Made by a program: the position numbers and the translations under genes. The notes beneath the pieces were generated by a model. The model saw only the letters and a list, made by a program, of their open reading frames with translations, was not told the DNA's origin and ran no database searches. 64,000 nt of DNA from a virus: IMG/VR virus record IMGVR_UViG_3300045972_000291, positions 377 through 64,376 of that record. The stretch is one strand, 5' to 3'. Positions 9,939-30,459 of the stretch are shown here, piece after piece. Within the stretch, counting starts at the first letter, position 1. Each line of letters starts with the position of its first letter.

Positions 9939-9940
9939 GG

Positions 9941-10657: not shown

Positions 10658-10947
10658 GCCCTCGCTTTTTCAGATTTAGCGGCGCGAAATTTGCCGGCGC
10701 GAACCCAGTCCAGCACCGCATTATTGCAGCCCCAGCAGTGGTCGGGCGCCTCGTTGATGAGCCAGCGCGCGATCTCCGGCAGCGCGAGCGCGGATTTGTC
10801 GTCGGCGCGGACCACGGCTGAAACGAAGTCGTTCTCGAACGCGGCGCGCAGGAATGATCCTGGCATGATGCCTTGCTCGACATACCGCTGGGCGCCCTCG
10901 CGGAGGTGTTCGGGTAGGGATGAATAATCAATATCGGCCATGGTCAC
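10654..10947 (-). CDS. Hypothetical phage protein
   Basis: Coupled ORF; YVEQGIMPGSFLRAAFENDF. Confidence 0.75.
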   Translation of the reverse strand: MTMADIDYSSLPEHLREGAQRYVEQGIMPGSFLRAAFENDFVSAVVRADDKSALALPEIARWLINEAPDHCWGCNNAVLDWVRAGKFRAAKSEKARA

Positions 10948-11168
10948 GCAACCTTTTCGATTTCAGGAAGATCGATCGAAGCCCCGCGCTCGAACCCGAA
11001 GCACGTGTCCTCCTCGCGCCGATATTTCCCGGCATGGATCGATGTCGGGGACAGGCATTTTGCGACCACGGTCCCCTTCCGGTTGACTTTGGCGTCTTGG
11101 TCGCTCAGGAACCGGCAGGCGTCGCAGGCGCGGAAAACGCCGCGGCGATATTGCGTCTTCTCGACCAC
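10944..11168 (-). CDS. Small four-Cys protein
   Basis: CDACRF...KC...DTC; coupled ORF. Confidence 0.65.
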   Translation of the reverse strand: MVEKTQYRRGVFRACDACRFLSDQDAKVNRKGTVVAKCLSPTSIHAGKYRREEDTCFGFERGASIDLPEIEKVA

Positions 11169-11171
11169 GGC

Positions 11172-12275: not shown

Positions 12276-12277
12276 TG

Positions 12278-13237
12278 TCAGCTCCTGAAGGCCCAAGCGG
12301 GCAGGCTATTGATGTCGATTTCCTCGAGCGGCTCCGCCAAAACCCAAGGCAGGTCGAAGCCGAAGCGCGCGACGTGGTCGCGGTAGTTCTGTTCCGCGAT
12401 GCGCAGCGTCGTCCGCGCGATGTCGCGCAGGCCATTGGCCGGAGACAGGCTGACGCCATAGGTCAGCGGGGCGCCATCGGCTTGGTAGAAAACAAAAACG
12501 AAGGCCCACTCGTTGGCGCCGGCGACGCGGCGCAGCCATTCCGGATCGTGGTCGCCCTGCACGGCGCCGTCGGCGATCAGCGTCCGAGCTGCGGCGCGGC
12601 CATGGTCGTAATGCTCGGCCTGGGCGTCATAGCGGTACTCGGCCAGCGAGCGGCGGCAGGCCTCGCGGAAGTCGATGCTCCGGCTGTTGCGAATCGATTT
12701 GAGATCGACGCTGGCGCGCGGTTTCAGGTAATCGATCCGGCATTTCTTGCGGAGGCCGTTGTCTTCCCAGAAGATCGACACTTCCGACATGCCGCCCGAA
12801 AAGGCTTCTGCCAGATAAGGGTTCGACCGGATCATGGCGCCGGACGAACAAATCTGGTTCCAATCGTCGCGCTTGATCGGCGTCTTGCCGGCGTCTTCGA
12901 TGGCTTTTCGTTCGGCCTTGCCGTCTTTGGTCGCGCCGTTGAAGTTGGTCGGCGCATAAAGCGCCTCGAACAGGTCGCGGCCCTCGAGGACGAACTTGTG
13001 AACGGCGCGGCCGAAGAGCTGCTGCGGCGTCGGGTCTTTCTGAACCCGCATCGGATTGTGGACGGACTCGAACCAGTAATCGCAGGGCGAATAGGCCAGG
13101 CGCTTCATGTCGGTGGAGCCCAGCGCTGGGTCGGCATGATAGGTCTCCTCATCGAGGCCGAAATAGACGCCAGGGGCAAAGGGCTTGGCGCCCAGGCGCT
13201 CGACAGCCTCGGATAGGGCGGTGTAGTCCAGCATCAC
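12278..13237 (-). CDS. PD-(D/E)XK nuclease, RecE/ExoVIII-like (DUF3799-like)
   Basis: YHADPALGST, GRAVHKFVLE, EVSIFW...KCRIDYL...DLKS, YDAQAEHY motifs. Confidence 0.87.
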   Translation of the reverse strand: MMLDYTALSEAVERLGAKPFAPGVYFGLDEETYHADPALGSTDMKRLAYSPCDYWFESVHNPMRVQKDPTPQQLFGRAVHKFVLEGRDLFEALYAPTNFNGATKDGKAERKAIEDAGKTPIKRDDWNQICSSGAMIRSNPYLAEAFSGGMSEVSIFWEDNGLRKKCRIDYLKPRASVDLKSIRNSRSIDFREACRRSLAEYRYDAQAEHYDHGRAAARTLIADGAVQGDHDPEWLRRVAGANEWAFVFVFYQADGAPLTYGVSLSPANGLRDIARTTLRIAEQNYRDHVARFGFDLPWVLAEPLEEIDINSLPAWAFRS

Positions 13238-13503
13238 GCCGGCTCCTTTCCATCAAAAGCGCTCAGCACTCCCGCCGTCTTCCCGAACTGATTCAGAAGC
13301 CCGTCGCAGGCGATGCCGATACGTTTGCGGAGAAACAGCGCCGGCGCGTCGTCAGGGATCGTGGTCGCGCGGATGGCGTCGACGACATCCCTCGCGGCGT
13401 CGAAATCGCCCATGTCGGCAAGGATCAAGGCGTCGTCGATTTGGGTGTTGACCCGCTCGAGCACGGCTTCCATGGCCTTGAGGCAGATGATTTGGCCGCT
13501 CAT
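13234..13503 (-). CDS. Hypothetical protein
   Basis: Start MSGQIICLK; coupled ORF. Confidence 0.65.
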   Translation of the reverse strand: MSGQIICLKAMEAVLERVNTQIDDALILADMGDFDAARDVVDAIRATTIPDDAPALFLRKRIGIACDGLLNQFGKTAGVLSAFDGKEPA

Positions 13504-13631
13504 TGGCCTGCTCCGTGGGTGGCTTGGAAAATGACCCAGGCAATCGCGATGGCGACGCCCCAACATGAGATCGCGAGGGCCAGCAGGAACGCGATGGCGG
13601 TTTCGGGGCGGAGTTGTTTTTCCGGGCGCAT
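13500..13631 (-). CDS. Small membrane protein (43 aa)
   Basis: MRPEKQ...AFLLALAISCWGVAIAIAWVIF; coupled ORF. Confidence 0.55.
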   Translation of the reverse strand: MRPEKQLRPETAIAFLLALAISCWGVAIAIAWVIFQATHGAGQ

Positions 13632-13636
13632 GGCCG

Positions 13637-13972
13637 TCACTCCGCTTCCGCAAATTTGGCGATCTGGCTTTCGACCGCTTCCATGGCGGCCTTGTCGGTC
13701 GTCAGAAGAGTCTCGATCACGGCGGCGAATTCCGGCCCGATGGCCACCGGCTCGCCGTCGCCACCGCTGTCCAGGAACAGTTCCGGCGTCCCGGCGACGG
13801 TCCAGTCCGGTCCGCCTCCGGGGTCGTACAGATCGGGCCGGTTGTACGGCGGGATGTATTCGGCCGATCCGAAATGCGTGACCTCGATGACGGCCTTGAC
13901 GTAGAAATCCGCACCGAAATGCAGGCCGGGGAGCGGGATGGTTGCGGTGATTTTGGTGGCCATCGTCGTCAC
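13637..13972 (-). CDS. Hypothetical protein
   Basis: Coupled ORF in leftward operon. Confidence 0.7.
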   Translation of the reverse strand: MTTMATKITATIPLPGLHFGADFYVKAVIEVTHFGSAEYIPPYNRPDLYDPGGGPDWTVAGTPELFLDSGGDGEPVAIGPEFAAVIETLLTTDKAAMEAVESQIAKFAEAE

Positions 13973-14295
13973 TCCGCAGCGCTGGCGAGCGTTTCAACGC
14001 CGTCCGCTTCCGGCGTCAGGCCGGCGACGACGGTGGCCGCAGCCTCCCCGAGGGGCGTGAAGGTGTCGCTGGCGATGGCTTCGACGAGCGGCGCGTCGAC
14101 GCCGTCGTCTTCGGCCATGATTTCGTTGATCGCGGCGGCGATGCGGGCGTATTTCTCGCGCTCGCCCTCGGGGTAATAGAGGACGATGCTGGGGTCGAGC
14201 GGTCTGTCGTGAGTGTGGATTTTCAAGGCATTTACACCGACATGAGCGCCGATTTTTTCGCGGATGAAAAAGGACGCTGAATAAAATTCCATCAT
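13969..14295 (-). CDS. Hypothetical protein
   Basis: Start MMEFYSASF with SD GAGGGAGGAAG. Confidence 0.65.
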   Translation of the reverse strand: MMEFYSASFFIREKIGAHVGVNALKIHTHDRPLDPSIVLYYPEGEREKYARIAAAINEIMAEDDGVDAPLVEAIASDTFTPLGEAAATVVAGLTPEADGVETLASAAE

Positions 14296-14306
14296 GACTT
14301 CCTCCC

Positions 14307-14678
14307 TCAAAACTGCTGGCGATGATTGAGCGTGTTGTGCTCGGCGAAATCGGAGCGCGCGCCGGCGCTCTCCTCGATCTCCTCGGCCGCGTGCGTCAGG
14401 CTCCAATCGAGGTTCCCGGCGACGGCGTCGGTGACGTAAGTTTCGTGGCCATCGGGGACCGCCGCCGTCGCCAGTCCGCCTTCGACCACGATTGCGAAAA
14501 ACAGCGGGTCGAGTTTGGTCGCGAGTTTGGCTGCCAGACCGGACAGGGCACGGAGATGATCGGGGTCGGTTTCGTCGACGACCGCGTGGCAGATCGTGTC
14601 CAGACGCGCGGCGACGAGGTTGGCGATGGCGTCGTCGATGGCCTGCTGCAGGCCGGTGCGGGCGAAGTGGGCGGACAT
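14307..14678 (-). CDS. Hypothetical protein
   Basis: Start MSAHFARTG with SD AAGGGAG. Confidence 0.65.
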   Translation of the reverse strand: MSAHFARTGLQQAIDDAIANLVAARLDTICHAVVDETDPDHLRALSGLAAKLATKLDPLFFAIVVEGGLATAAVPDGHETYVTDAVAGNLDWSLTHAAEEIEESAGARSDFAEHNTLNHRQQF

Positions 14679-14682
14679 CGGG

Positions 14683-15255
14683 TTAGGCTCCCTTGGTGGT
14701 GACAGGCGCCGGCTCGCGGCCGGACAGAAAGCGGGAAAACTGCACGACCGCGCGCATGTCGATGGCGAGGACGTCGACGCCCAGGTCATCGAGCGCCATG
14801 ACGGCGCGGGCGAGGTCGAGCTTGTGCCGGCGGATGAGTTCTTTGCCGCGCCATTCGCAGCGGGTCGGCTCGGCAGGGCCGCGCACTTGGGGTTGCGGGC
14901 GGGGTTGCTGGCCTTTGCGGAACGCGACGAAACACTCGATCAGGGCGCGGCGGACGGCGGGGGCCCTTGGGGCTTTCGAAAGGATCGTGACGAGAAGCGC
15001 TTGATGCTCCGTCAAGAAATAGACGCGCCCCGCCGTGGGGCGCGTGCCGCCGTGAGTGGTAACCGTCCCGGTTTGCAGCTTGCCATAGGACAAAAGCTCG
15101 TCGTGGTGGCGTTCGATAATTTCCCGGATTTTACGACCACGAGAAAAACCAAGCGCTTCCGCCAAGACGGTGTCGGCGATCATGGGCTCGCCGTTGACGA
15201 GAGCGCTGACACACGACGTCGGTAGCTGAATCTCGGGATCGGCATCGGTCGGCAT
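14683..15255 (-). CDS. Rha/antirepressor-like regulatory protein
   Basis: LAEALGFSRGRKIREIIERHHDEL...YFLTEHQALLVTILSKAPRAPAVRRALIECF; first gene after the leftward promoter, SD GGAG. Confidence 0.7.
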   Translation of the reverse strand: MPTDADPEIQLPTSCVSALVNGEPMIADTVLAEALGFSRGRKIREIIERHHDELLSYGKLQTGTVTTHGGTRPTAGRVYFLTEHQALLVTILSKAPRAPAVRRALIECFVAFRKGQQPRPQPQVRGPAEPTRCEWRGKELIRRHKLDLARAVMALDDLGVDVLAIDMRAVVQFSRFLSGREPAPVTTKGA

Positions 15256-16181: not shown

Positions 16182-16511
16182 TCACCCCGATTTTCTCGGA
16201 AGAGCGTTCTCGATTACTATTTTCAACCGATCGCTATCTTCTTTCTTATGGTTGGCAAAAAGCTTCGACAGCCAATCGTCTTTGGGGTGGCGAAATAGGT
16301 CGTTCGGTTCGATTGAGAGTGCGTCGCAAATCAGCAACAGGTTTTTTTCGGATGGGAGCGATCCGCCGCACCACTTCGAAACCGTAGCCTTGTTGACGCC
16401 AACAAGCTTCTCCAGATCGGCCTGGATCATGTGACGCGTCTCCAGCCATTCAACCAGATAGTGAATGCGGATCGGGCGCTTATCTGCATGAATTTTTGCA
16501 ATCTTTGGCAT
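16182..16511 (-). CDS. CI-like repressor (XRE HTH, no S24 peptidase domain)
   Basis: QADLEKLVGVNKATVSKWCGG HTH; divergent from cro-like gene. Confidence 0.88.
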   Translation of the reverse strand: MPKIAKIHADKRPIRIHYLVEWLETRHMIQADLEKLVGVNKATVSKWCGGSLPSEKNLLLICDALSIEPNDLFRHPKDDWLSKLFANHKKEDSDRLKIVIENALPRKSG

Positions 16512-17141: not shown

Positions 17142-17703
17142 ATGTCTTCTCCATCGTGCGATTCGACCTCCGCGATGGTAGGGGCGGCGGCGGGGCGCGT
17201 CAGCACAGTTGCTGGCCCCGCCGCCACGGGTTTGAAAAAAGGCGACGCGGAATGAAAATTTCCCTTCGGCGCCGCCCGCCTGAACTCGCCTTGGGTCGTA
17301 ACCTTGGCCAAGATCGTGAGCTTGGCGAAAAAAAAGCGACCGTTGGCGCGGTCGCGATTTCCCGTTCATCCACCCGCGCCGCTCCCTCCACCAGTGCCTC
17401 CGAGGGCGGGCTGGTCAAACACGCTCCGAACCATCGAGCGACGCGGGGGCCGCAAGGCCGTTATTCATTGTGGAATTCGGAGAGGCCCTCGTCCTATTCG
17501 CGCGATCTCGCGCGTCCGCCGTTCGCGACTGACATCGCGAACATTCGCCCCTTCTGGGGCGATTCCCTCCTCGACTTGGGCGGCTTGGCTTTGGCCTCGC
17601 CGTCCATTTTTCGAGGTTTCTTTGGCCAAGGCGTTGCCGCGCCCGGATGCCGCCGTCTGATTGTCAATCCGTCCAGGAAATACCGTGCGGAGGCGTCTTC
17701 GCG

Positions 17704-18120
17704 ATGACCTTCGTCGATACCGTGCATCAGAAAACATCCCCCGTTCCAGTGCGTAAAATCTCGCACGGGGGTTTGGAATTGTCCGGTTCGATCGGCGCCC
17801 GTTTCCGGGCACATCTCATAGATTTTTCGGGCCTCGTCGCCTTCTTGCGGCAGGAGCATCCGAACAAGACGGCTGAGGCTGTCGAGGCGATTTGCGGCGT
17901 TCCCGCCGCGACCGTCCGCAAATGGCTTTCCGGGGAAACGAACCCGAATGGGACCGCGCTGGCGACGCTGCTGCTGGCCTATGGGCCGGAAGCGTTCGCG
18001 TCATGCGTCGCGTACTCGCCCGGCTGGCTCAAGGCCGCCGTGCGCGACGAGATGACGCGCAAGTTGGAACAGCAGATTTCCGAACGCGAACGGCGATTGG
18101 CCGAACTCCGCGCGAAGTAA
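17704..18120 (+). CDS. HTH protein in the CII position
   Basis: HPNKTAEAVEAICGVPAATVRKWLSGETNP plus C-terminal coiled coil. Confidence 0.8.
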   Translation: MTFVDTVHQKTSPVPVRKISHGGLELSGSIGARFRAHLIDFSGLVAFLRQEHPNKTAEAVEAICGVPAATVRKWLSGETNPNGTALATLLLAYGPEAFASCVAYSPGWLKAAVRDEMTRKLEQQISERERRLAELRAK

Positions 18121-18461: not shown

Positions 18462-18998
18462 ATGAGTGAACACGGTCAGAACAGCATCGACAAAACCGTG
18501 CTGGCGCGGTGGGCTGGGGAAATCCTCGCGATTCATTCCAAGCTTGACGATCAGAAGATGGAAAATCTTCGCATCTGCAAGGAAATCCGGGAGCCGCTAG
18601 CCGATCTCTACGACGCAGCCAAAAATGCCGGGCTGCCGTCGAAGGCGTTCAAGGCCTACGTCAAATCCGAGTTGGCGAAGCGCGCCTACGAAAAGCGGCT
18701 GGCGAACCTTGAGCCCGAGGATGAGGACGATTCGGCCATCTACGAGCTGATGCGCGAGATCGCGCAGAACGGTGACTTGTTCGATGCTGCCGTGAAGGCG
18801 CATGACGCGAAAAAGGGCGATGACGACGCCGATCTGCGCCCCGGGTTTCTCAAGGATAAGGGCGTCACGGCGACGGTCAAATTCGGCGATGGTCCCGAGG
18901 TTTCTTTCGATGCCGCCCGCGTGACGGAAAACATCAGGCGCTTGAAAACGGGCATCAAGCCGATTGGCCTTCCCGGCGCCGACGCGAACGAGGCCTGA
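18462..18998 (+). CDS. GapR/DUF2312-like DNA-binding protein
   Basis: EIREPLADLYDAAKNAGLPSKAFKAYVK resembles the GapR DIKDVYAEAKGxGFDxK core; divergent. Confidence 0.55.
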   Translation: MSEHGQNSIDKTVLARWAGEILAIHSKLDDQKMENLRICKEIREPLADLYDAAKNAGLPSKAFKAYVKSELAKRAYEKRLANLEPEDEDDSAIYELMREIAQNGDLFDAAVKAHDAKKGDDDADLRPGFLKDKGVTATVKFGDGPEVSFDAARVTENIRRLKTGIKPIGLPGADANEA

Positions 18999-19004
18999 CG
19001 CGCC

Positions 19005-19598
19005 ATGCATCTGATGGCCCTCGACATCGCCGTGAAACTGGGCTTCGCCATTGGCGAGGCCGGCACGACGCCGCGATCCGGAAGCGTCCGGCTCAAATCG
19101 CCGGAAGACGATCCATCGAGGGCCTGCCGCCGTTTCGGCATCTGGCTCCGCGACGAATTCAGCCTGCGGATTCCCGACCTCGTCATCATCGAGGCGCCGG
19201 TCAATATCGGGGCGTTCATCGATTGGAAAGATGACGGCAGAAAGCCGATGTTCCGCTCGAACCCGCAAACGATTTCGCTCCTGCATCGCCTGATCGGCGG
19301 CGTCGAGACGCTATGCGGCCCCTACGGCGTCCGGTGCGTCTCCGCCAATGTGCAGACCGTCCGCAAGCACTTTCTCGGCGCAGCGCGCCCCTCTGAGCCG
19401 AAGAAGGCCGTTGTCGCGCGATGCCATCAACTCGGACTGATGCCGCGCGACTGCAAAGACGATAATCGCGGGGACAGCCTGGCCCTCTTCGAGTACGGCG
19501 CCGCCCATTACGCCCGCGCCATCCCCTCGCAACTGATCCTGCATGGCGAAACGCCGGCGGAGACGGTGGAATCGGTGTTTGGAGGGCGTCAGGCATGA
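19005..19598 (+). CDS. RuvC-like Holliday junction resolvase
   Basis: MALDIAVKLGFA, PDLVIIEAP, NVQTVRKHFLG and DNRGDSLAL motifs. Confidence 0.8.
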   Translation: MHLMALDIAVKLGFAIGEAGTTPRSGSVRLKSPEDDPSRACRRFGIWLRDEFSLRIPDLVIIEAPVNIGAFIDWKDDGRKPMFRSNPQTISLLHRLIGGVETLCGPYGVRCVSANVQTVRKHFLGAARPSEPKKAVVARCHQLGLMPRDCKDDNRGDSLALFEYGAAHYARAIPSQLILHGETPAETVESVFGGRQA

Positions 19599-21274
19599 GC
19601 GACCGCCGCTTTACCGAAAAACCCGCGCTTGATCCCGGCTCGATCTGGGAACTTCCGCCCGATCATGCCGCCATGCGCGAGAACAGGACGCTGTTTCCGT
19701 CCACGGTCGTTCCGGTTCTGGCGACGACTCCCGACCGGATCCTGATCTCGGGTTTCAACAATCGCAAGATCGGCAAGACGGTCGAAAAAGGCGCCTTCAA
19801 GGGCTATGGCCTCTATTGCCTGTCGCTGGAAGAGCGCGCGACCTGCCCGCTGGGTTGCGACATGCGCGCCGGCTGTTACGGCAACGCGATGCAGATGGCG
19901 CGCCGCCACAGGATCGAGAACCCCGACATTTTCTTCGCCCGGCTTGAAGAAGAAATCGCCGGGCTACTGAAAACCGAGAAGGGCTTGCTGATCCGGCTCC
20001 ATGTCCTCGGCGATTTTCCCTCGGTCGAGTATGTCGCGTTCTGGCTCGACATCCTGGCGCAATACCCGAACGTCGCCTGCTACGGCTATACCCACCGCCT
20101 CGAAACGGCGCTGGAGGGCGATGAGATCGGCGACGCCATCGCGAGCGTCAAGGCGCAATATCCCGACCGCTTCCGCATCCGCTGGTCTTTCGGCGCCGCG
20201 CTGGTCGATGGCGCGATGGTGGTCGAGAACCAGGACGATATCGACGGGGCCAGCCAGGACGAAATTCAGGCGATTGTCTGCCCGGCGCAAACCGACGCTA
20301 CCGCCTGCTGCGCGACGTGCGCGCTGTGCTGGGCGACCGTCGACAATTGCGTTCTGTTCTGGAAGCACGGCAAGAAGTCCGTCGATGTTGCGCTGGAGAA
20401 AGCGGCGCGGGCTTCGGATGCCGCGACGACTGAGGGGGAGTCTGGCGCCGTTCGCCCCGTGACGCCGATCCAGTTGCCGCCGTCGCCGAAGCCGGCGCCT
20501 GTCTCCGCCGACGCGCCCGAAATCCGCATGGTCTATCCGACCGAACTGCGAATCGAGGCGAGCTATCAGCGCAATCTTTCCGGCAAATCCATTCGGATGA
20601 TTCGCAAGATCGCGACGGAATGGTCATGGGCGAAATTCAAGCCGCCGATCTGCGCCGAGACGCCGGATGGCCTGTTCATCATCGACGGCCAACACACGGC
20701 GATCGGCGCCGCCAGCCATCCCGATCCGTTCAAAATCCCGGTTCTCATCGTCAGCGCCGACAAGGTCGAGGACCGCGCCAGATCCTTTGTCTCGCATAAC
20801 CGCGAGCGGGTGAATATGAGCGCGTTCGACGTCTTCCATGCCGAGGTTGCCGCCGGCGTCGGTTCGGCCGCGCAACTGGCCAGTATCGCGCAGGAAGCAG
20901 GGTGCGCCATTCCCCGCGGAGCCGTCGCCAGGAACAAATTCGAGCCCGGCCAACTGATCGCGCTTAATGAGGCGAGGACGGTTCTTGGCGGCGCCGGCGA
21001 AAAGACAGTCGCGCGGGTCCTGTCGATTTGCGCGAAGGCGAAATTGACGCCGATCACCTCTGTTCCGCTGCGCGCGGTTCGTAGAATGCTCGAAAACGAC
21101 GCCTATGCGTGGTCGAGGGATTTCAGCGACGATCAGATCGCGGCGGCGATGGCGACGATTCCCGATCTTGACGACGCGGCACGCACCCACGCCGCGAAAA
21201 CGGGGCAGGATCGTCAGCGCGCCTGCATCATGCTGATCCGAGACGCCTTGCTCGGAAAGGCGGCAGCCGAATGA
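19595..21274 (+). CDS. Gp88-like Cys-rich (Fe-S?) domain fused to a ParB/Srx-like (DUF6551-like) domain
   Basis: N: LEERATCPLGCDMRAGCYG, IRLHVLGDF, CPAQ...CCATCALCW; C: LRIEASYQRNLS...IIDGQHT. Confidence 0.72.
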   Translation: MSDRRFTEKPALDPGSIWELPPDHAAMRENRTLFPSTVVPVLATTPDRILISGFNNRKIGKTVEKGAFKGYGLYCLSLEERATCPLGCDMRAGCYGNAMQMARRHRIENPDIFFARLEEEIAGLLKTEKGLLIRLHVLGDFPSVEYVAFWLDILAQYPNVACYGYTHRLETALEGDEIGDAIASVKAQYPDRFRIRWSFGAALVDGAMVVENQDDIDGASQDEIQAIVCPAQTDATACCATCALCWATVDNCVLFWKHGKKSVDVALEKAARASDAATTEGESGAVRPVTPIQLPPSPKPAPVSADAPEIRMVYPTELRIEASYQRNLSGKSIRMIRKIATEWSWAKFKPPICAETPDGLFIIDGQHTAIGAASHPDPFKIPVLIVSADKVEDRARSFVSHNRERVNMSAFDVFHAEVAAGVGSAAQLASIAQEAGCAIPRGAVARNKFEPGQLIALNEARTVLGGAGEKTVARVLSICAKAKLTPITSVPLRAVRRMLENDAYAWSRDFSDDQIAAAMATIPDLDDAARTHAAKTGQDRQRACIMLIRDALLGKAAAE

Positions 21275-21969
21275 CGCCGCTCCAGACCATCATCGCCTTA
21301 GGCGAAATCCTCGCGGCCAAGTCGGACAACATGGTCGAATTCGGTGTCGCGCAGCTGATCGTCAAACTGGCGCGCGAGGAAGAGGCCTCCACGCGCGAGT
21401 TGGTTTTTACACCCTCAAATGAGGGGACAAAAAAAGACATGCCGGTCGGGCCGATTGTCGAGGCGACCCCGTCCGCCGTCCGTCCGTCCATCTCGCCCAA
21501 GGTCAGGAAAGGCCCGGTCGATCCGAACAGCCTTGCCGGCCAGGTGCTGGAATTTCTGCCGACGCTGATCGATGTCTTTCCGAAGGGGCCGACAAGCAAG
21601 GTCCTCGCAGACAGAATGGACGCCGATGAGGCGCATATCCGCGCGGCCATGCGCGAATTGCACGATTCGGGGCAGGCGGCGCGTGTCCGCCGCAGCGACT
21701 CGCCGGCATGGCATCTGATCCCGGCGGGCTATGTGCCGCCGCAGGAGGAATTAACGGAAACGCAGGCGAAGGTGTTCGAGGCGATCAGGGCGGCGGCGGG
21801 CGAAGACGGTGTCTCGCAGATCAGCCGCAACGATATCTGCGATTCCGCGCACGTCTCGAAAGGCGCCATCCACGCGGTTCTCGTCGCGCTCGAGCGCAAG
21901 GGCTACATCCATCAGGTCGAGGTCGGACGAGGGACAACGCCGTCGAAGATAAAGGCGCTGGCCCCATGA
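21271..21969 (+). CDS. Protein with tandem winged-helix domains
   Basis: SKVLADRMDADEAHIRAAMRELHDSG and ISRNDICDSAHVSKGAIHAVLVALERKGYI. Confidence 0.7.
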   Translation: MTPLQTIIALGEILAAKSDNMVEFGVAQLIVKLAREEEASTRELVFTPSNEGTKKDMPVGPIVEATPSAVRPSISPKVRKGPVDPNSLAGQVLEFLPTLIDVFPKGPTSKVLADRMDADEAHIRAAMRELHDSGQAARVRRSDSPAWHLIPAGYVPPQEELTETQAKVFEAIRAAAGEDGVSQISRNDICDSAHVSKGAIHAVLVALERKGYIHQVEVGRGTTPSKIKALAP

Positions 21970-22541
21970 GCAACTGGCCCTTTGGCGCCCTGCGCCCGCT
22001 CTCCTTCGACCTCATCATGATCGACCCGCCGTGGTCGCATGAAATGCGGTCCGCGAAAGGCGTCACGGCCAAAAGCGCCGGCGGCCAATATTCCCTGATG
22101 TCGCTCGATGACATCGCGGCTCTTCCCGTGGCCATGCTCGGGCGCGGCGACGCGATCTTCTGGATATGGGCGACCCACGCCATGATCGACCAGCAGATCG
22201 CCGTTGCCCGCCGCTGGGGCCTGACGTTCTCGACAACCGGCGTCTGGGTCAAGCGCACCGCGCACGGCAAGCTCGCGTTCGGCACCGGCCAACGCCTGCG
22301 CTGCGCCTCGGAACCTTTCATCATCGCGACGCTCGGCGCGCCTTTGACGGCCAAGAGCGTTCGCACCGTCATCGAAGGCCCGGTCCGCGAACATTCCCGC
22401 AAGCCCGATGAAGCCTACGCCGCCGCCGAGTCCCTCTATCCGCGCGCGGTCAATCGCGCCGACATTTTCGCGCGGGAGACCCGCCCGGGTTGGACGACCT
22501 GGGGGAATGAGCAAACCAAATTTGACGGAGCCGCAGCATGA
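21966..22541 (+). CDS. MT-A70 family N6-adenine methyltransferase
   Basis: DPPW catalytic motif, YSLMSLDDIAALPV, HSRKPDE, DIFARE, WGNE. Confidence 0.92.
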   Translation: MSNWPFGALRPLSFDLIMIDPPWSHEMRSAKGVTAKSAGGQYSLMSLDDIAALPVAMLGRGDAIFWIWATHAMIDQQIAVARRWGLTFSTTGVWVKRTAHGKLAFGTGQRLRCASEPFIIATLGAPLTAKSVRTVIEGPVREHSRKPDEAYAAAESLYPRAVNRADIFARETRPGWTTWGNEQTKFDGAAA

Positions 22542-23146
22542 CCTGGGGATGGACAGAAGCCAACGTTGAACAACTGAAAAAGCTCTGGGCGCAAAACTGG
22601 AGCGCCGGCCAGATCGCCGCCGAATTCGGCCCCGAATGCACCCGCAATGCCGTCATCGGCAAAATCAATCGCCTCGGACTTTCAGGCCGCATCTCGGTCG
22701 CGAAAACCGAAGAACCGATCAAACTCTGCGCCATCGCCCCGCTTGCGCCGACGCCGACCATGGGTGAGGGCCGCGCCAAGATGGAAGATGCGCGCCGGGC
22801 TCAAAATCTCGCGGCCAAGAGCGTTCGGAAGCCCAACGCCTTCATCGAGCGGCTCCGCACCAACGCGGCCAGCAACGACCGCGCCGGCGACGACGCGCGG
22901 GCTTTAGCCGGCGAAGGCGTCACGATCATCGATCTGCGGCCCGATTCCTGCCGCTGGCCGATGGGAGACCCCGGCAGCGAATCCTTTCTTTATTGCGGCG
23001 ACAGACGCGACGGCGCCGGGCCCTACTGCGCCTGCCACCGTGTCAGGGCCTATCAGCCCCGTGCCCTGCGGCCCGTCGGCTATTCCGATGGCAGCGTCAG
23101 GAAGACGGACCGCGAGGATGCCGAGCCGAAGGAATTGGTGCTTTGA
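22538..23146 (+). CDS. gcrA: GcrA cell-cycle regulator homologue
   Basis: WTEANVEQLKKLW...SAGQIA...TRNAVIGKINRLGL; C-terminal CRWPMGDP...FLYCG...YCACH. Confidence 0.92.
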   Translation: MTWGWTEANVEQLKKLWAQNWSAGQIAAEFGPECTRNAVIGKINRLGLSGRISVAKTEEPIKLCAIAPLAPTPTMGEGRAKMEDARRAQNLAAKSVRKPNAFIERLRTNAASNDRAGDDARALAGEGVTIIDLRPDSCRWPMGDPGSESFLYCGDRRDGAGPYCACHRVRAYQPRALRPVGYSDGSVRKTDREDAEPKELVL

Positions 23147-23355
23147 GCGATGAGCGTGTCGCCGCAGATGCCGATGGGCCGATTCCGATGAGCCAGTTGC
23201 TCGCCACCTTGCGCGAGATCGCAAACGACGAGGAGCGGATGTTCAAGGTCTACGGCCACTGGTCCCGGAAGCATCGCGCCAGATGCCTCGATATCGCGGC
23301 GAACTTCATCTTGGGCGAGCTGATCGAGCAGAAGCAATATCGGAGGGGGAGATGA
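23143..23355 (+). CDS. Hypothetical protein
   Basis: TTG start overlapping the gcrA stop. Confidence 0.55.
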   Translation: MSDERVAADADGPIPMSQLLATLREIANDEERMFKVYGHWSRKHRARCLDIAANFILGELIEQKQYRRGR

Positions 23356-23507
23356 AAGAGGGCGATGTGATCTGGTTCAGATACGTGCGCCACGCCGAGC
23401 GCGCCGCCTATGAGGCGCGCGGCTGGGTTTTTGCCGCCGATCTCGGACTGCCGCACGGGGCCTATTCGGTCCTCATGCAGTGGCCCGGCGAAGGGAGCCC
23501 GCAATGA
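23352..23507 (+). CDS. Small hypothetical phage protein
   Basis: SD GGAGG; FRYVRHAE...GW...LGLPHGAYSVLM. Confidence 0.65.
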   Translation: MKEGDVIWFRYVRHAERAAYEARGWVFAADLGLPHGAYSVLMQWPGEGSPQ

Positions 23508-23863
23508 AATCCAAAGGCCGCCCCCGCACCTATCTTCCCGCCGAACATGCCCGCGCGATCTATCTGGCCGGTGCCGGGGAGGATGCTGGCGCCATCGCCG
23601 ACCTGATTGGCAACACGGACGCGGCCCGCATCCGGGCGATGCTGTCCGGATACGGCGTCCCGCTGCTGCGGAGAGGGCCGAACCAGACTGCGATGCTGAT
23701 CATCGTCGGCGACGTCACGGCTACGGACATCGCGCGCGAGGCTTCGCTGAAGGGGTTCGCGCCGGCGCTGCTGATCGGCGGGATGGTAGATGCGCATTTC
23801 GCGCGGCGGCGGCCGGTGGCGATTCAAGACCCGGACGCGGCTCTGGCTGCGCAGAAAGGTTGA
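23504..23863 (+). CDS. Hypothetical protein (HTH/RHH-like)
   Basis: Coupled ORF starting MKSKGRPRTY. Confidence 0.6.
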   Translation: MKSKGRPRTYLPAEHARAIYLAGAGEDAGAIADLIGNTDAARIRAMLSGYGVPLLRRGPNQTAMLIIVGDVTATDIAREASLKGFAPALLIGGMVDAHFARRRPVAIQDPDAALAAQKG

Positions 23864-23867
23864 CCCA

Positions 23868-24128
23868 ATGAGCAAGGAGCCGCTGACGCCTCGCGAGATT
23901 GAAACGCTGGCCTTCGCCAGCGCAGGGCTGATGAACAAGCAAATCGCGTTCGAACTTGGCGTGAGCGAACCAACGATCAAGGCGCATATGGGCAAGGTTT
24001 TGCACAAGCTCGGCGTGCCGTCGCGCGTGGATGCCGTGCTGAAATTTCACCAAATCGACCACGCGGCGGCACTGACCCTCGCCCGCGAGATTTTGGCCGG
24101 AGACATCCTTTTCGACGTGGAGTTTTAG
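23868..24128 (+). CDS. Stand-alone LuxR-type HTH regulator
   Basis: LTPREIETL...GLMNKQIAFELGVSEPTIKAHMGKVLHKLGVPSR. Confidence 0.9.
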   Translation: MSKEPLTPREIETLAFASAGLMNKQIAFELGVSEPTIKAHMGKVLHKLGVPSRVDAVLKFHQIDHAAALTLAREILAGDILFDVEF

Positions 24129-24130
24129 CA

Positions 24131-24478
24131 GTGACCACGGAATCCGAACAGAACCTGATCCGCTTATGCCACTACGAGGCGTTCCGCACCGGTCTGGAAT
24201 GGGCCGTCACCACGCTCCCCGCCGATCATCGCGCGATCTATCTCGAACAGGCGCTGGCCGCCGCGATGTCGGTGCTGCGCCAGCATTGTCCCGACGAAAT
24301 AACAGCGGTCTGCCGCCGCACCGGCCTCGATTTGATGCCGTCGCCGCCGCAGAAGCCGAAGCCGCGCCGCATCGTCGATTGGTTCCGGCGCCAGGATGCC
24401 GGCTCCCTTGTGGCGCTCGCCTCATATGCCGTGCTGATCGGATGGGGCGTGTTTGCGGTCGTGAAATCCATTTGGTGA
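24131..24478 (+). CDS. Hypothetical protein with C-terminal TM segment
   Basis: GTG-start ORF filling the operon. Confidence 0.6.
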   Translation: MTTESEQNLIRLCHYEAFRTGLEWAVTTLPADHRAIYLEQALAAAMSVLRQHCPDEITAVCRRTGLDLMPSPPQKPKPRRIVDWFRRQDAGSLVALASYAVLIGWGVFAVVKSIW

Positions 24479-24490
24479 AAGGTGCGGCCG

Positions 24491-25648
24491 ATGCCGGACG
24501 ATATTGCATTTCAGGACTGGGTCGCGCGCGCCAAGGAAGCCGATATCCGCTGCGTCGCCGACCGTCTCGGCGCCCAACTCAAAAAGGCCGGCGCGAAGGA
24601 ATTCCAGGGGCCATGCCCGAAGTGCGGCGGCACCGATCGGTTCAGCCTGAACATCGCCAAGCAAGTCTTCAACTGCCGCAGCGCCGAGGGCGGCGGCGTC
24701 ATCGGGATGGTGATGCACGTCCAGGGCTGCGAATTCGTTCCGGCGTGCGAATTCATTCTCAATGAAAATGCGCCCGGCCGCGACGCCGCCTATCGCCCTG
24801 ATCCCGAAATCATGCGGGAGCGGCGCCAGGAGCGCGAGGAACATAAGATCGAGCAGGCGGTCAAGGAGCGCCACGAGGTCGACGAAGCGGTGGTCGCGGC
24901 GACGGAGATGTTCGAATCCGCGGCGCCGATTCAGAACACGAGAGCCGAAGATTATCTCGAATTCCGAGGCATCCGTCTCAGACCACAATTCGCCGCCGAT
25001 CTGCGCTTCATCCCCAACCTAGAATATTGGGGCTACGCCGATGCTGGGGCCGAAGACCTGACGATGCTGGGACGCTGGCACGCGATGGTCGCCGCGATCC
25101 GCGATGTCCACGGCCGCATCATCGGGATCCACCGGACCTATATCGAGCACGACAGGCCGGTCAAACTGCGCCCGCCCGGCGACCAGAAGCGCAACAAGGC
25201 GAAGAAGGTCTTCCGCAAGATGATGGGCGGCCTGATCCGGCTCGGTCCTGTCGGCGAGACGGTGGCGATTGGTGAAGGGATCGAGACGACGCTGTCATGG
25301 TGGCAACTCGGCTACGGGCCGGAGGACGTCACCGTCGCCTGCGGCGTCAATCTCGGCAATATGTCGGGATCCTCGACGGACACGATCCCGCATCCGAAGC
25401 ACGCCAACCAGACGATCCAGAACGGGGTTCCCGACCCCGCCCATCCCGGCATGATCCTGCCATCTGAGGTCAAAAACCTGATCCTGATCGGCGACGGCGA
25501 CAGCGATCCTCACGCAACCCGCGCAAAGCTTCTGACCGGTGCCCGCCGCTTCCGGGGCCAAGGCCTTGAGGTCTCGATTTCGATGGCGCCGGCAGGCTGC
25601 GATTTCAACGACGTGCTGCGCCGCGCGGAAGAAGTGGTGGCGGCATGA
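24491..25648 (+). CDS. DNA primase (Zn-finger + Toprim)
   Basis: GPCPKCGGTDRF...FNCR; IGIHRTY; IGEGIETTLS; LIGDGD. Confidence 0.9.
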   Translation: MPDDIAFQDWVARAKEADIRCVADRLGAQLKKAGAKEFQGPCPKCGGTDRFSLNIAKQVFNCRSAEGGGVIGMVMHVQGCEFVPACEFILNENAPGRDAAYRPDPEIMRERRQEREEHKIEQAVKERHEVDEAVVAATEMFESAAPIQNTRAEDYLEFRGIRLRPQFAADLRFIPNLEYWGYADAGAEDLTMLGRWHAMVAAIRDVHGRIIGIHRTYIEHDRPVKLRPPGDQKRNKAKKVFRKMMGGLIRLGPVGETVAIGEGIETTLSWWQLGYGPEDVTVACGVNLGNMSGSSTDTIPHPKHANQTIQNGVPDPAHPGMILPSEVKNLILIGDGDSDPHATRAKLLTGARRFRGQGLEVSISMAPAGCDFNDVLRRAEEVVAA

Positions 25649-25929
25649 CGGACGATATCGACGACGAACCCGAAGAAACATCCGAAACAGCCTTTTTTGG
25701 CCGCTTCGACGATGCGCTCGACATGCTGGTTTCCGGCGCCGTCGCCTCATCCGAGCAAGAGGACATCGACCCGTCCGAGGTCGTCAAGGACGTCGTCACG
25801 GCGCTCGTCGTCCACGCCTACGATTTTGCCGCCTCCGTGATGTCGCAAGCTGATGCCGTGGCTTTGGTCGCCGCTATTCTGCAAACCGCCTCGGAATTCT
25901 ACGGCAAAAAGGCGCGCCTCGATGCGTGA
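25645..25929 (+). CDS. Small acidic hypothetical protein
   Basis: Coupled ORF. Confidence 0.65.
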   Translation: MTDDIDDEPEETSETAFFGRFDDALDMLVSGAVASSEQEDIDPSEVVKDVVTALVVHAYDFAASVMSQADAVALVAAILQTASEFYGKKARLDA

Positions 25930-26335
25930 CGAAGCCGCCACCATTGCCTGGCACCTGGATCGCATCCGCGCGCAAAGCGACAGGATCGAGGAGCTTGAGG
26001 AAGAGGTCCGGCAGCTGCGCGAGCAATTGGCGCCGCAGATCTATTGGGCGCCCGACCTCGGATTGACGAATCTCGATAAGAGGGTTCTGGAGGCGCTGCT
26101 TGGCCGGTCGCCGACGCCGCTGACCCGGGAACGGATCATGGTTGCGGCCTATCCCGATCCCGACCGGGCGCCTGACGCCAAGATCGTCGACACCGTGATC
26201 TGCAGGATGCGGAAACGTCTGGCACTCCACGGCGTCCGGATCGGAACCGGCGGCTATAACTGCGGCTGGTTCATCGATAAAGAAAACGCCGCGATTCTCG
26301 CCAAGCTGCAGGTCAGCGGGGCGTCGCCGCCATGA
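25922..26335 (+). CDS. CtrA/OmpR-type winged-helix DNA-binding protein lacking a receiver domain
   Basis: N-terminal coiled coil, then LTRERIMVAAYPDPDRAPDAKIVDTVICRMRKRL. Confidence 0.82.
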   Translation: MRDEAATIAWHLDRIRAQSDRIEELEEEVRQLREQLAPQIYWAPDLGLTNLDKRVLEALLGRSPTPLTRERIMVAAYPDPDRAPDAKIVDTVICRMRKRLALHGVRIGTGGYNCGWFIDKENAAILAKLQVSGASPP

Positions 26336-27660
26336 ACGCACATCCATCGCCCGATTCCGCCATCATTCAGGACTTCGCGGCGTTTGAAGCGGAAACGCTG
26401 CGGATGCTGGCGCCGCCGCGCGAAAGCCGGCTGGGCCGGATCTCCATCGGCGAGGTCGCCACCCGGAAGGTCAAGCCGGCGTCCTATATCATCGACGGCT
26501 GGATGCTGGCGCGCGAACAATCATTCTTGGCCGGCGAATCCCAGAGCGGCAAATCCTTCCTGGCCCTTCACGCCGGGATGTGCATCGCCACCGGGCGCGA
26601 TGTTCTGGGCCGGAAAACCAATCCTGGTCTCGTCATCTATCAGGCCGGCGAATCGGGTTTCGGCGTCACCGGCCTCCGCATTCCGGCATGGATCCAGCAC
26701 TTCGGGGAAGGTGTCGATTTCTCTGCGGTCCCTTTCGAAATCATCCCGGCGCGCGTCAATCTGTTCCGTCCCGACGGCAACGCCGAGGAATTCCACCAGG
26801 TCGTCGCTGCGATCCAGAAGGAATGGGCCGGCCGCGCCGATCTGCGCGCCGTCATCATCGACACCATGTCCAAGGTCATGTCCGGGGCCAACGAAAACGA
26901 CGGCCGCGACGTCGGCCGCGTGCTGGAGAACGGCGAACGGATCAGCCGCGATACCGGCGCCCATGTCTGCTTCGTCCACCATCTGCCCAAAAACGGAACC
27001 GGCATGCGCGGGCACGGATCGCTGAAGGGCGACACCGATTCCGTCGTCATGGTCTCCGCGGCGCCCAACGGGGTCCGCACGGTCCTGTTCGACAAGGTCA
27101 AGGACGGCGAGGCCGGCGGGAAACTTTCGTTCGAACTCAGCCAGGTCAAGATCGGTGTCCGCGATGACGGGAAACCGATCACGTCCTGCATCGTTTCCGG
27201 CGTCGGCGAAAAGGAAGCGGCGCGCAAGGCGGAAGAGGCCAAGGGCTTTTCGCTGCGGCCGCGCGAGGAGCCGATCTTCCGGGCGCTTCTTACCGCATTG
27301 GCGCGCTATGGCCGCGTTGCCGACGCCGACATGGAGGCCAAAGGCGTTCCGGCAGGCGTCGCCGCCGTCGAGCTGTCGGAATGGCGCGAGGTCTACAAAT
27401 CCATCGCGCCGCCTGACGCCAACCTGCAGGAACCGAGCGCCGACGCGATCCGGAAGCATTTCGAACGCTACGGCCAGAGCCTGGTCCGATACGAGGTCAT
27501 CGGGTTTTCCAACCCCTATTTGTGGCATACGGGCAAGGCCATTCGCGGTTTCCCGGAGACGCATCGCAATCTGGACAAAACCCGGACAAGCGCCGGACAA
27601 AACCCGGACAATACCGGGACAACGTCTGATTGGATCAACGACCTCGGGGAGACGTTCTGA
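26332..27660 (+). CDS. AAA_25/RepA-type replicative helicase
   Basis: Walker A GESQSGKS, Walker B VIIDT, ENDGRD, VHH..K..RGHGSL. Confidence 0.9.
   Translation: MNAHPSPDSAIIQDFAAFEAETLRMLAPPRESRLGRISIGEVATRKVKPASYIIDGWMLAREQSFLAGESQSGKSFLALHAGMCIATGRDVLGRKTNPGLVIYQAGESGFGVTGLRIPAWIQHFGEGVDFSAVPFEIIPARVNLFRPDGNAEEFHQVVAAIQKEWAGRADLRAVIIDTMSKVMSGANENDGRDVGRVLENGERISRDTGAHVCFVHHLPKNGTGMRGHGSLKGDTDSVVMVSAAPNGVRTVLFDKVKDGEAGGKLSFELSQVKIGVRDDGKPITSCIVSGVGEKEAARKAEEAKGFSLRPREEPIFRALLTALARYGRVADADMEAKGVPAGVAAVELSEWREVYKSIAPPDANLQEPSADAIRKHFERYGQSLVRYEVIGFSNPYLWHTGKAIRGFPETHRNLDKTRTSAGQNPDNTGTTSDWINDLGETF
27573..27622 (+). repeat. Five GGACAA repeats at exact 11-bp spacing (iteron-like)
   Basis: Copies start at 27573, 27584, 27595, 27606 and 27617. 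Confidence 0.85.
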
Positions 27661-28914: not shown

Positions 28915-29228
28915 CTGCCTTCCGCCAGCGCCGCCGCGCCCGCAACCCCTACCACGGCTTTGACGAGCCGCCAGCACCCCGCCGCGCCCGGCCCATCATC
29001 CCCGAAGACGATATCAGGATCCTCAAACCCGCCGTGATCACCATGATGGTGTTGGAACGGATCGACAAGCGCGCCGGCGATGCCGAACCCTGCACCTTTG
29101 CCGAACTCTGCCTGGTCGTCGGCGGCGAAAATGCGCCCGAACTGAAGCGGACGCTGTTACGGCTGGAGCGGGAAGGGCGAATCACGGGGAAGGTCGAGGG
29201 CCGGGCGATTGCGTGGCGGCCGGCGTGA
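28911..29228 (+). CDS. Winged-helix hypothetical protein
   Basis: CTFAELC...LKRTLLRLEREGRI. Confidence 0.6.
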   Translation: MTAFRQRRRARNPYHGFDEPPAPRRARPIIPEDDIRILKPAVITMMVLERIDKRAGDAEPCTFAELCLVVGGENAPELKRTLLRLEREGRITGKVEGRAIAWRPA

Positions 29229-29340
29229 ACAAACCGCGATTTTCTGGGTCCGTTCCGTGGCGCCGAAAAGGCCGAAAAATCCGGACCTTTGGCAATAACT
29301 GTAGCAATTTCAATACCATAACATCGGTGCCGGGTGATTC

Positions 29341-29379
29341 GGACAAAAACCGGACAAAATGCGGACAAAACCCGGACAG
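29341..29379 (+). repeat. Four GGACA(A/G) repeats at 11-bp spacing followed by phased A-tracts
   Basis: Copies start at 29341, 29352, 29363 and 29374; same unit as in the helicase gene. Confidence 0.85.
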
Positions 29380-29527
29380 GCCTCAAAAAGCGGGTCTGGC
29401 GCCAAAATCCGTCAAGCAAAATCAGCCTGAAAACAGGACTGAAATGAAAAATAGTTGAAGCCCTTTGAAATCATGAGTTTGAGGCCGAAAAAGCCCCGAA
29501 AATCGGTATTTGATCTACGCCCCCTTA

Positions 29528-29557
29528 TTGACGTGGAGGGATTTGTCGGTCTTTCAT
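29528..29557 (+). promoter_or_regulatory. Putative late (PR'-like) promoter
   Basis: TTGACG at 29528-29533, identical to the two early promoter -35 boxes; -10 is weak. Confidence 0.5.
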
Positions 29558-29562
29558 GCGCT

Positions 29563-29732
29563 AGTCAGCCTCGGCATAGTTAGTGACCGATCAGACAGCG
29601 CTGGATCTGAGTTGATGAGCGTGAGGCGGCCTCAAGCCGCCGCTCTCTCACACAGTGCGAGTCTCTTATATCAGCGGTAACATTGTTGATGTTGATAGAG
29701 GCGGTTCAGATTCTTAACAATGCCGAGGCCGG
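29563..29732 (+). ncRNA. Candidate structured non-coding RNA / late leader
   Basis: GCCTCGGCAT (29568-77) pairs perfectly with ATGCCGAGGC (29720-29), extended by GTTA/TAAC; internal hairpins GGCGGC-CTCAA-GCCGCC and TATCAGC/GTTGATA. Confidence 0.55.
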
Positions 29733-29850
29733 AAGATTTTTCCGAATCGGTGGCCGATAACGATCCTTCCTTCGCTGGCTTGATTCGGACCGCGCGCGCT
29801 GTCCGGTTTTTGAGGTTCTCCAGATGTCATCACCTGATCGATCACGCATC

Positions 29851-29938
29851 GGAGCGGTGGCAGAGAGGCTTATTGCGTCGGTCCCGAAAACCGAAGGACC
29901 GCAAGGTTCCGTGGGTTCAAATCCCACCCGCTCCTCCA
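29851..29938 (+). tRNA. tRNA-Ser(CGA), atypical C33 and U73
   Basis: GGAGCGG/CCGCTCC acceptor, TCGGT-CCCGAAA-ACCGA anticodon arm, long variable arm, GTGGG-TTCAAAT-CCCAC T arm, encoded CCA. Confidence 0.88.
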
Positions 29939-29959
29939 ACCGACAGCAACGCTAGACGA

Positions 29960-30034
29960 TCCCGCTTCGTCTAGTCGGTAGGACAAGGGCCTTTGAAGCC
30001 CTCAACCTTGGTTCGAGCCCAAGAGCGGGAACCA
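29960..30034 (+). tRNA. tRNA-Gln(TTG)
   Basis: TCCCGCT/AGCGGGA acceptor, AGGGC-CTTTGAA-GCCCT anticodon arm, CTTGG-TTCGAGC-CCAAG T arm, CCA. Confidence 0.92.
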
Positions 30035-30153
30035 GTTCAAAGCGCAGAACTGCGGCCAAGGCCCGTCACTGGATGGGATGCTTTCCGTAGGTGTGCGCAG
30101 ATCGGCATGCATCTGGCTCCGGGGCGCTCCGAACCTGATGCCGCCGAGAGTTT

Positions 30154-30231
<78 letters not shown>

Positions 30232-30252
30232 CATCCCCAGGGAGGAGCGCAC

Positions 30253-30459
30253 ATGACCGGCTGGCCATTCGACGGCGCGCCGAAGCGCGTCCGACTCGAC
30301 GCCGATCTCTACGACCACGCCAAAGCGGGAGAACCGCGCCCGGCCGAACCGGCGCGCGACACCGTGCTGGTGGATCAGCCTCTGCGTATGGTTGGGGCGG
30401 ATCGGGGGAGGATTGAGGACCAAAAACGACCGCAGGGGCCGGATTGTGACTGCCGTTAA
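30253..30459 (+). CDS. Hypothetical protein
   Basis: Strong SD GGAGGAG before ATG. Confidence 0.5.
   Translation: MTGWPFDGAPKRVRLDADLYDHAKAGEPRPAEPARDTVLVDQPLRMVGADRGRIEDQKRPQGPDCDCR

Follow-up and report, generated by a model that had tools for sequence, protein, structure and literature searches.

A replication operon of a temperate phage with diverged GapR-, GcrA- and OmpR-type proteins and an MT-A70 methylase: a possible phage-directed replication and late-transcription kit

This report concerns an early operon of a phage represented by the IMG/VR virus record IMGVR_UViG_3300045972_000291 (66.9 kb, 100% complete by CheckV), of which bases 377-64376, a stretch of 64,000 nucleotides hereafter called the window, were analysed. 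At 18462-27660, on the + strand, regulator and replication genes are tightly packed into one operon, in which neighbours abut or share many 4-bp start/stop overlaps. Its products include a diverged GapR-like protein, an MT-A70 family N6-adenine methyltransferase, a GcrA homologue and an OmpR-type winged helix-turn-helix protein devoid of a receiver domain (named here the wHTH). In these, together with a solo LuxR-type helix-turn-helix (HTH) protein and further winged-helix proteins, a first-pass annotation had seen a parallel set of cell-cycle regulators, with which the phage would rewire or stall the cell cycle of its host. All the genes it listed are indeed present in this single + strand operon, interleaved with primase and helicase genes, but the notion of a coordinated regulator set finds no support in the comparison with related phages. 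We propose instead, as a reading that seems to us about evenly balanced between right and wrong, that the operon provides a phage-directed kit for replication and late transcription, composed of diverged, phage-lineage members of host-type families, effects on the host being possible.

The gene at 22538-23146 (+) codes for a full-length GcrA homologue, with an N-terminal DNA-binding domain and a C-terminal CCCH zinc, sigma70-interacting domain (Pfam GcrA, 3.5e-31; 109 bits for a gathering score of 26.9). The protein aligns end to end, over both domains, with Caulobacter GcrA (PDB 7ye1, 6e-25, HMMER), and also separately with the structures of the DNA-binding domain (5yiu) and of the sigma70-interacting domain (5yix), in agreement with its first designation as GcrA. 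With regard to the key residues of Caulobacter GcrA listed by Wu et al. (PMC5887438), the five base contacts R33, N34, I37, G38 and R42 (Caulobacter numbering) are all identical in the alignment to 7ye1/5yiu, and the four zinc ligands C118, C133, C143 and H146 are retained. At the interface, W120, D124, F130, Y142 and Y151 are identical, and K119R, G129S and F132Y represent conservative changes. Since every residue reading methylated GANTC and holding sigma70 is retained, the phage protein could act at host GcrA promoters. This predicted host-type specificity makes it likely that the action of the protein extends to the GcrA regulon of the host, which the reading proposed above does not require.

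The same protein is a member of the PF07750 family and not an orthologue-grade match, as it scores 115 bits with the NCBIfam equivalog model NF050816, under the cut-off of 280. In a quick tree with 80 cellular GcrAs, whose long branches support a coarse statement only, the viral GcrAs form long branches that fall outside the cellular clade, the terminal branch of the phage GcrA measuring 2.0 compared with a median of 0.097. This position points to an old phage lineage and not to the recent capture of a host gene.

The retained DNA-reading and sigma70-binding residues also favour an alternative, in which the host chromosome is the main target of the set, whose action stalls or re-times the host cell cycle for the benefit of phage replication. 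GcrA and a GANTC-writing methylase would then force S-phase-like transcription, the GapR-like protein would perturb nucleoid topology, and the receiver-less CtrA-type domain would rival CtrA for the CtrA boxes and the origin. Such a take-over has already been published as a hypothesis for the GcrA of phage phiCbK (PMC3556154, PMC9437464). For the present operon we consider it possible, if rather doubtful, because its parts are inherited separately and because plausible targets are found on the phage itself.

Immediately upstream of the GcrA gene, at 21966-22541 (+), lies the gene of the MT-A70 family N6-adenine methyltransferase, which carries a DPPW motif and matches Pfam MT-A70 over the full model (3e-28). 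ATGA overlaps occur at both of its ends, the start overlapping the stop of the preceding gene and the stop overlapping the GcrA start (4 bp). The best PDB matches of the protein are the Tetrahymena MT-A70 DNA methylase subunits (7f4r, 1.6e-16, with the DPPW aligned) and METTL3. It is thus a true MT-A70 enzyme, as annotated at first, but not CcrM-type by family, and no match to PF01555, the family of CcrM, exists anywhere in the 66.9-kb record. A 687-residue methylase of the left gene arm was considered as a CcrM analogue and discarded, being a C5 (Dcm-type) enzyme. The MT-A70 family is present in 447 GenBank phage records from many host groups, and this generic character argues against the enzyme being a dedicated tool of host take-over. 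Enterobacterial phage MT-A70 methylases have been reported to copy the GATC specificity of the host Dam (PMC7556043). GATC is not avoided in the window, with an observed to expected ratio of 0.99. For the phage, MT-A70 may keep the fast-replicating DNA adenine-methylated, for protection or signalling.

Compared with a third-order Markov expectation of 187 GANTC sites, the window contains 124, and the resulting ratio of 0.66 is the lowest of the 16 xxNxx palindromes, level with that of TGNCA. GANTC is also the lowest or second lowest palindrome in each of three related phages, with ratios of 0.71-0.74. A depletion of GANTC is what DNA exposed to CcrM-type methylation usually shows. Two other palindromes are much more depleted than GANTC in the window, namely CTAG, far rarer than expected with 14 sites observed for 48 expected (ratio 0.29), and GTAC (ratio 0.56). 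The top GANTC cluster of the window, eleven GAGTC sites in about 330 bp at 8047-8374, corresponds to a coding tandem repeat and is unrelated to regulation.

The consensus of Caulobacter GcrA sites is YGAKTCK, with TGATTCG as the top site (PMC4647560). A cluster of such GcrA-type sites is found at 29178-30298, where 6 of the 32 YGAKTCK and 3 of the 4 TGATTCG of the window are gathered, with 5 sites in 1 kb for 0.5 expected (uncorrected P 1.7e-4). The cluster sits in a low-GC leader (GC 0.45-0.52, for 0.62 overall) that precedes the tRNAs and packaging genes. We can propose that the phage GcrA, carried by the sigma70 RNA polymerase of the host, stimulates promoters that contain methylated GANTC; on the phage, this leader of the tRNA/late operon is the best candidate. 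A scan of the late leader for the sigma70 consensus returned one weak site, no more than expected by chance. In the same leader, the 10-mer TGATTCGGAC occurs at 29335-29344 and 29781-29790, exactly twice in the window; in it, the opening bases (CGGAC) of the repeat unit described further on are joined to the best GANTC site of GcrA type.

The third protein with a cell-cycle counterpart is the wHTH (25922-26335, +), whose gene lies between those of primase and helicase. It comprises 137 residues with an OmpR/PhoB-type winged helix (Trans_reg_C, 8.3e-7), and its residues 1-45, at the place where a receiver would be, form a predicted coiled coil rich in heptads. No match to a Response_reg domain was found in Pfam or NCBIfam, and the protein is without phospho-acceptor. 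A profile of the few homologues of the wHTH matches dozens of OmpR/PhoB-family PDB entries, with E-values down to 5e-11. The winged-helix and receiver-less parts of the first description stand. The likeness to CtrA, the remaining part, is more limited. CtrA (NF045991) is the sole NCBIfam match at E<=0.001, with 24 bits for a cut-off of 350, and the CtrA gene is the best match of the wHTH in five out of five Hyphomicrobiales genomes, one of these genes being confirmed as CtrA with 423 bits. The BLASTP alignment of the wHTH with CtrA (41% over 54 residues) covers helices 1-3, including the recognition helix and the KI(I/V)D..IC+(L/M)RK+L stretch.

These best matches plead for an action on the host, all the more as a protein binding CtrA boxes could act only there: the box TTAA-N7-TTAA is absent from the phage, and with one mismatch allowed a single match is found for 2.3 expected. 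However, the next NCBIfam models, RpaB and TctD, follow at 16 bits, and CtrA is the best match of this protein only among five members of the wHTH family, the other four matching TctD or PhoB models. Furthermore, the candidate base-contact positions of the recognition helix, chosen by inference from PhoB, differ from those of CtrA. The wHTH is an OmpR-type effector domain that resembles CtrA, and not a CtrA.

Tandem OmpR/PhoB-type domains bind direct repeats spaced one helical turn apart, and on the phage an 11-bp phased direct repeat, GGACAAAACCC, is arrayed twice. Array 1 (27573-27622, +), with 4.5 copies and a Tandem Repeats Finder (TRF) score of 65, is located in the helicase gene, at its 3' end; array 2 (29340-29378, +), with 3.5 copies and a TRF score of 57, lies in the A-rich intergenic stretch that leads into the tRNA/late operon, with a TGATTCG site overlapped by its first copy. 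Among the five exact copies of CGGACAAAA in the window, four are inside these arrays. The 11-bp GGACAAAA repeats, and not TTAA-N7-TTAA, are the likely targets of the wHTH as far as sequences can tell. The coiled-coil protein would be constitutively dimeric and bind these phased repeats as tandem OmpR-type dimers do, and might function either as an origin-binding initiator, in view of the primase and helicase genes on either side of its own, or in the regulation of the late leader. In the single relative that possesses a wHTH homologue (G008), a different 11-bp array with 3.5 copies occurs about 2 kb downstream of the helicase gene, and the two others (G006 and G007) have neither a wHTH nor any such 11-bp array. 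A related receiver-less wHTH of 177 residues (E 1e-3) is encoded by the chromosome of Methylocystis parvus, a host-like genome (L102, G001:C1:1883817-1884050), where it may be prophage-borne.

The operon also codes, at 18462-18998 (+), for a 178-residue protein first described as GapR-like, a designation that holds despite the absence of any direct match. Searches with the protein itself returned no Pfam match at E<=10 and none in NCBIfam, PHROGs or PDB (phmmer); the PF10073 model found no match in the phage genome, and Foldseek of the structural model found nothing in PDB. A narrow profile, built from 26 GapR-like sequences, had three GapR structures within its five best PDB matches, with E-values of 0.2-0.4 only, and gave an hhalign probability of 37% when compared with seven cellular GapRs. 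In the AlphaFold2 model, helices span residues 11-55, 60-83 and 88-102. Via an exhaustive structural search of 48,161 chains, the free GapR 6jyk was ranked first (Z 5.4, root-mean-square deviation 3.3, 69/77 residues), tied with unrelated coiled coils.

Homology with GapR follows from a transitive test. The family profile collects 350 representatives (clusters at 50% identity) from a library of 1.84 billion proteins, and among the best 149 of them that were scanned, 57 match GapR_DNA-bd (PF10073), with a best E-value of 6.7e-11, any other family being matched by two at most. In addition, a broadened profile (A5) aligns with cellular GapR over 50 columns, at residues 12-72, with an hhalign probability of 96.9% and an E-value of 1.8e-10. 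In the ESM Atlas, the nearest clusters are viral and contain PF10073 in 14-46% of their members. The product of 18462-18998 is a diverged GapR homologue of phage type, with the GapR-type helical domain at about residues 12-85 followed by a C-terminal extension. The GapR-like profile found no relatives in the genome contigs. The family is large and mostly viral, with its 350 clusters overlooked by standard annotation, and can now be annotated as GapR-like. Several of its conserved motifs are without counterpart in cellular GapR, namely a PEDEDD acidic patch, GDLFD, D.RP and a C-terminal GLPGADAxEA tail, and may represent partner-binding sites; the GDLF loosely resembles sliding-clamp-binding peptides, although this is a guess. 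By analogy with cellular GapR, the phage protein could help phage DNA replication by handling overtwisted DNA ahead of the forks.

The notion of a coordinated set was examined by comparison with three phages (G006, G007 and G008) that share the early module. Structural genes are unrelated between these phages and the window; the portal protein has no match in any of the three, indicating that their late regions are unrelated. All three retain the genes of the GapR-like protein, RuvC, MT-A70, primase and helicase in the same order, and these are the constant elements of the module. In contrast, GcrA is found in two of the relatives, the wHTH in one and the LuxR-type protein in none. In G006 and G007, as in the window, GcrA directly follows MT-A70, and in G008 an OmpR-type wHTH (Trans_reg_C, 3e-12) takes this place, a position other than that of the wHTH in the window. 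The backbone of the operon is thus a replication module, and the regulators are exchangeable accessories.

This variability gives weight to a second alternative, in which the operon has no concerted function and represents a mosaic of independently acquired DNA-binding proteins and methylases, serving mostly the regulation of the phage's own genes and anti-restriction; the resemblance to a kit would then merely reflect the gene pool of alphaproteobacterial phages. It is also favoured by the presence of wHTH homologues in unrelated contexts, and by the diversity of genes occupying the same slots. Between primase and helicase, for instance, the wHTH of the window is replaced by a 91-residue protein reduced to DnaA domain IV in G006 (L013:15041-15316; Bac_DnaA_C, 3.1e-12) and by a methylase in G007. 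More methyltransferases occur in the replication module of the relatives, including a Dam-like PF05869 enzyme, others of C5 type and a DUF4942 protein that also has a methyltransferase domain (genes at L014:15463-15960, L014:17446-18126, L015:15703-17613 and L015:17864-18553), and this module is a hotspot for DNA-modification genes.

We nevertheless regard a mosaic devoid of concerted function as unlikely, in view of several associations. MT-A70 is directly succeeded by GcrA in two relatives as well as in the window, where the two genes share the ATGA overlap, and sites of the GcrA type are concentrated at the late leader. A second local pairing, that of GcrA with a solo GerE HTH protein, is met again in a cultured phage that is only distantly related, Rhizobium phage RHph_Y1_10 (MN988487; L126:5980-6701), in which the end of the GcrA-like gene overlaps the gene of a 72-residue solo GerE HTH protein (GerE, 2.1e-13). 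The order in that phage is methylase, RusA resolvase, replication protein, GcrA-like and solo GerE HTH, about 3.6 kb upstream of the terminase. GcrA homologues are found in only 23 of 50,697 GenBank phage records, and among the same records neither the GapR-like protein nor the wHTH has a tblastn match at E<=1e-3. Because they are so rare or absent there, the occurrence of three alphaproteobacteria-linked families in one operon is more than a chance draw.

Several observations weigh against the phage-directed kit that we favour. The cluster of YGAKTCK sites is only moderately significant, with P roughly 0.01 once corrected for about 64 windows, and the relatives, whose late regions are unrelated, show weak GANTC clusters at best and no clear equivalents. 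The link between wHTH and 11-bp arrays rests on four genomes, and five other loci with wHTH homologues display 2-copy repeats only, which are uninformative. The late leader may correspond to an origin, to a promoter or to the two together. Finally, in five other GcrA-encoding viral contigs, MT-A70 was found in none and PF01555 in one, so that a phage-encoded writer of methylation is not generally needed. The same counts dismiss the idea that every phage with GcrA requires its own adenine methylase.

The slot between primase and helicase lends itself to a bolder proposal. The domain IV-only DnaA protein of G006 stands alone in a phage that, like the window and the other two relatives, has no DnaA-box cluster, which speaks for an action on the host. 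One may imagine that interchangeable, stand-alone CtrA-type and DnaA-IV domains, derived from the two master regulators that bind the origin in the host, compete at the host origin, independently of phosphorylation or ATP, and thereby shut off or release host replication, with MT-A70 and GcrA forming a private writer-reader switch for late genes and the whole operon a compact phage counterpart of the DnaA-GcrA-CtrA-CcrM loop. We consider this combination improbable.

As to the phage itself, the window contains genes for portal, head protease, major head protein and tape measure, an integrase gene at its left end, and three tRNAs at 29851-30231. Codon-position GC was used to distinguish real genes from the many spurious open reading frames (ORFs) of this DNA with 62% GC, and delineates a leftward gene arm (833-15255) and an unbroken + strand chain from 17647 to about 29228, with the operon within the first 9 kb of the chain. 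A CI-type HTH_26 gene (16182-16511, -) is divergent from the gene that opens the rightward early operon, which encodes a Cro/antirepressor-type HTH_3 protein (17647-18120, +; Pfam HTH_3, 8.2e-5). Structural genes, integrase and this divergent CI/Cro-type switch together indicate a temperate tailed phage. Its host is probably a member of Hyphomicrobiales, judging from the closest GcrA and CtrA relatives together with one homologue in a Methylosinus metagenome-assembled genome. Megablast of the region against GenBank phages gave no match.

The remaining genes of the operon, all on the + strand, are in part those of replication and recombination. The GapR-like gene is followed by a RuvC-like Holliday junction resolvase (19005-19598; phrog_159, 7.8e-6), syntenic in the three relatives, and by a protein in which a GP88/DUF7227 domain is fused to a ParB-like domain (19595-21274; Pfam GP88, 4e-13; DUF7227, 2.7e-6; phrog_1033, 1.1e-15). 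The protein encoded at 21271-21969 carries a C-terminal LexA/MarR-type winged helix (LexA_DNA_bind, 1.6e-5, residues 159-215) and has a homologue in G007 with 41% identity. Downstream of GcrA, three small ORFs (23189-23356, 23353-23507 and 23504-23863) were read from the sequence; they match no Pfam or PHROG family, and the last has a homologue in G008. They precede the solo LuxR/GerE HTH protein (23868-24128; Pfam GerE, 6.7e-18), which has 86 residues from its likely start (86-112 for the ORF) and consists of the GerE HTH only, with neither receiver nor autoinducer-binding domain. The LuxR- and LexA-type proteins are thus real, as first noted, but are ordinary, generic phage regulators with no specific link to the cell cycle.

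The DNA primase (24482-25648) combines a CHC2 zinc ribbon, DUF7146 and Toprim (DUF7146, 6.2e-21; Toprim_3, 7.3e-7; Zn_ribbon_DnaG, 8.1e-5), and the replicative helicase (26332-27660) is of the AAA_25, RepA/DnaB-like type (Pfam AAA_25, 1.2e-32). A 115-residue protein (24131-24478) and an acidic 94-residue protein (25645-25929), coding according to codon-position GC, have no family match.

Since 2012, GcrA copies carried by phages have been mentioned as potential tools for acting on the host cell cycle, and homologues accompanied by a cell-cycle hypothesis have been described in phiCbK (PMC3556154, 2012) and elsewhere (PMC13459779, PMC9437464). CcrM analogues in Sinorhizobium phages are cited in PMC9437464, and a GapR gene, proposed to be a recent host copy, has been reported in Erythrobacter phage R34L1 (PMC12185513). 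Literature searches returned no paper linking MT-A70 with GcrA and none on receiver-less CtrA-type proteins in phages. The operon represents a compact system that can be tested, where the phage GcrA follows the gene for a possible writer of the methyl mark from a different enzyme family, and where the receiver-less OmpR-type domain has candidate operator arrays close by. Should the phage-directed kit prove right, alphaproteobacterial phages would use methylation-reading sigma70 cofactors as activators of late genes; should the operon be directed at the host, the phage would supply natural dominant tools for probing the CtrA, GcrA and GapR circuits.

Among known systems, the nearest are the phiCbK-like Caulobacter phage gp222 (PMC3556154) and the GcrA of RHph_Y1_10, which, as here, are full-length PF07750 homologues in alphaproteobacterial phages, and such homologues have been proposed to manipulate the cell cycle of the host (PMC3556154). 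RHph_Y1_10 further shares the location of GcrA within a replication module, followed by a solo GerE HTH. However, the GcrA of the window is only 26-32% identical to these proteins, is preceded by an overlapping MT-A70 gene, and shares its operon with a GapR-like protein and an OmpR-type wHTH.

Compared with the GcrA/CcrM module of Caulobacter (PMC3667746, PMC4647560, PMC5887438), the phage possesses the same sigma70-cofactor residues and an adjoining N6-adenine methyltransferase gene, and GANTC is likewise depleted genome-wide, with YGAKTCK concentrated in a regulatory region. The phage methylase belongs, however, to MT-A70 (PF05063) and not to PF01555, and the phage GcrA, with 115 bits compared with 280, falls outside the cellular clade. 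With regard to MT-A70, the enzymes of temperate enterobacterial phages and Tn1549 (PMC7556043) represent the same family of small phage-borne beta-class m6A (N6-methyladenine) DNA methylases, whereas here the host is alphaproteobacterial, its regulatory mark is GANTC, and GATC is not avoided.

With cellular GapR (UPF0335/DUF2312; 6cg8, 6jyk and 6ozz), the phage protein shares a homologous helical DNA-binding core, but it is twice as long, lies beyond direct Pfam detection, and carries the extra acidic patch, GDLFD and GLPGADAxEA motifs. In contrast to the GapR of R34L1, it comes from a large, mostly viral family, and is not a recent host copy. As for CtrA, the phage wHTH has the OmpR-type winged helix in common with it, but neither receiver nor phospho-acceptor, and bears a coiled coil instead.

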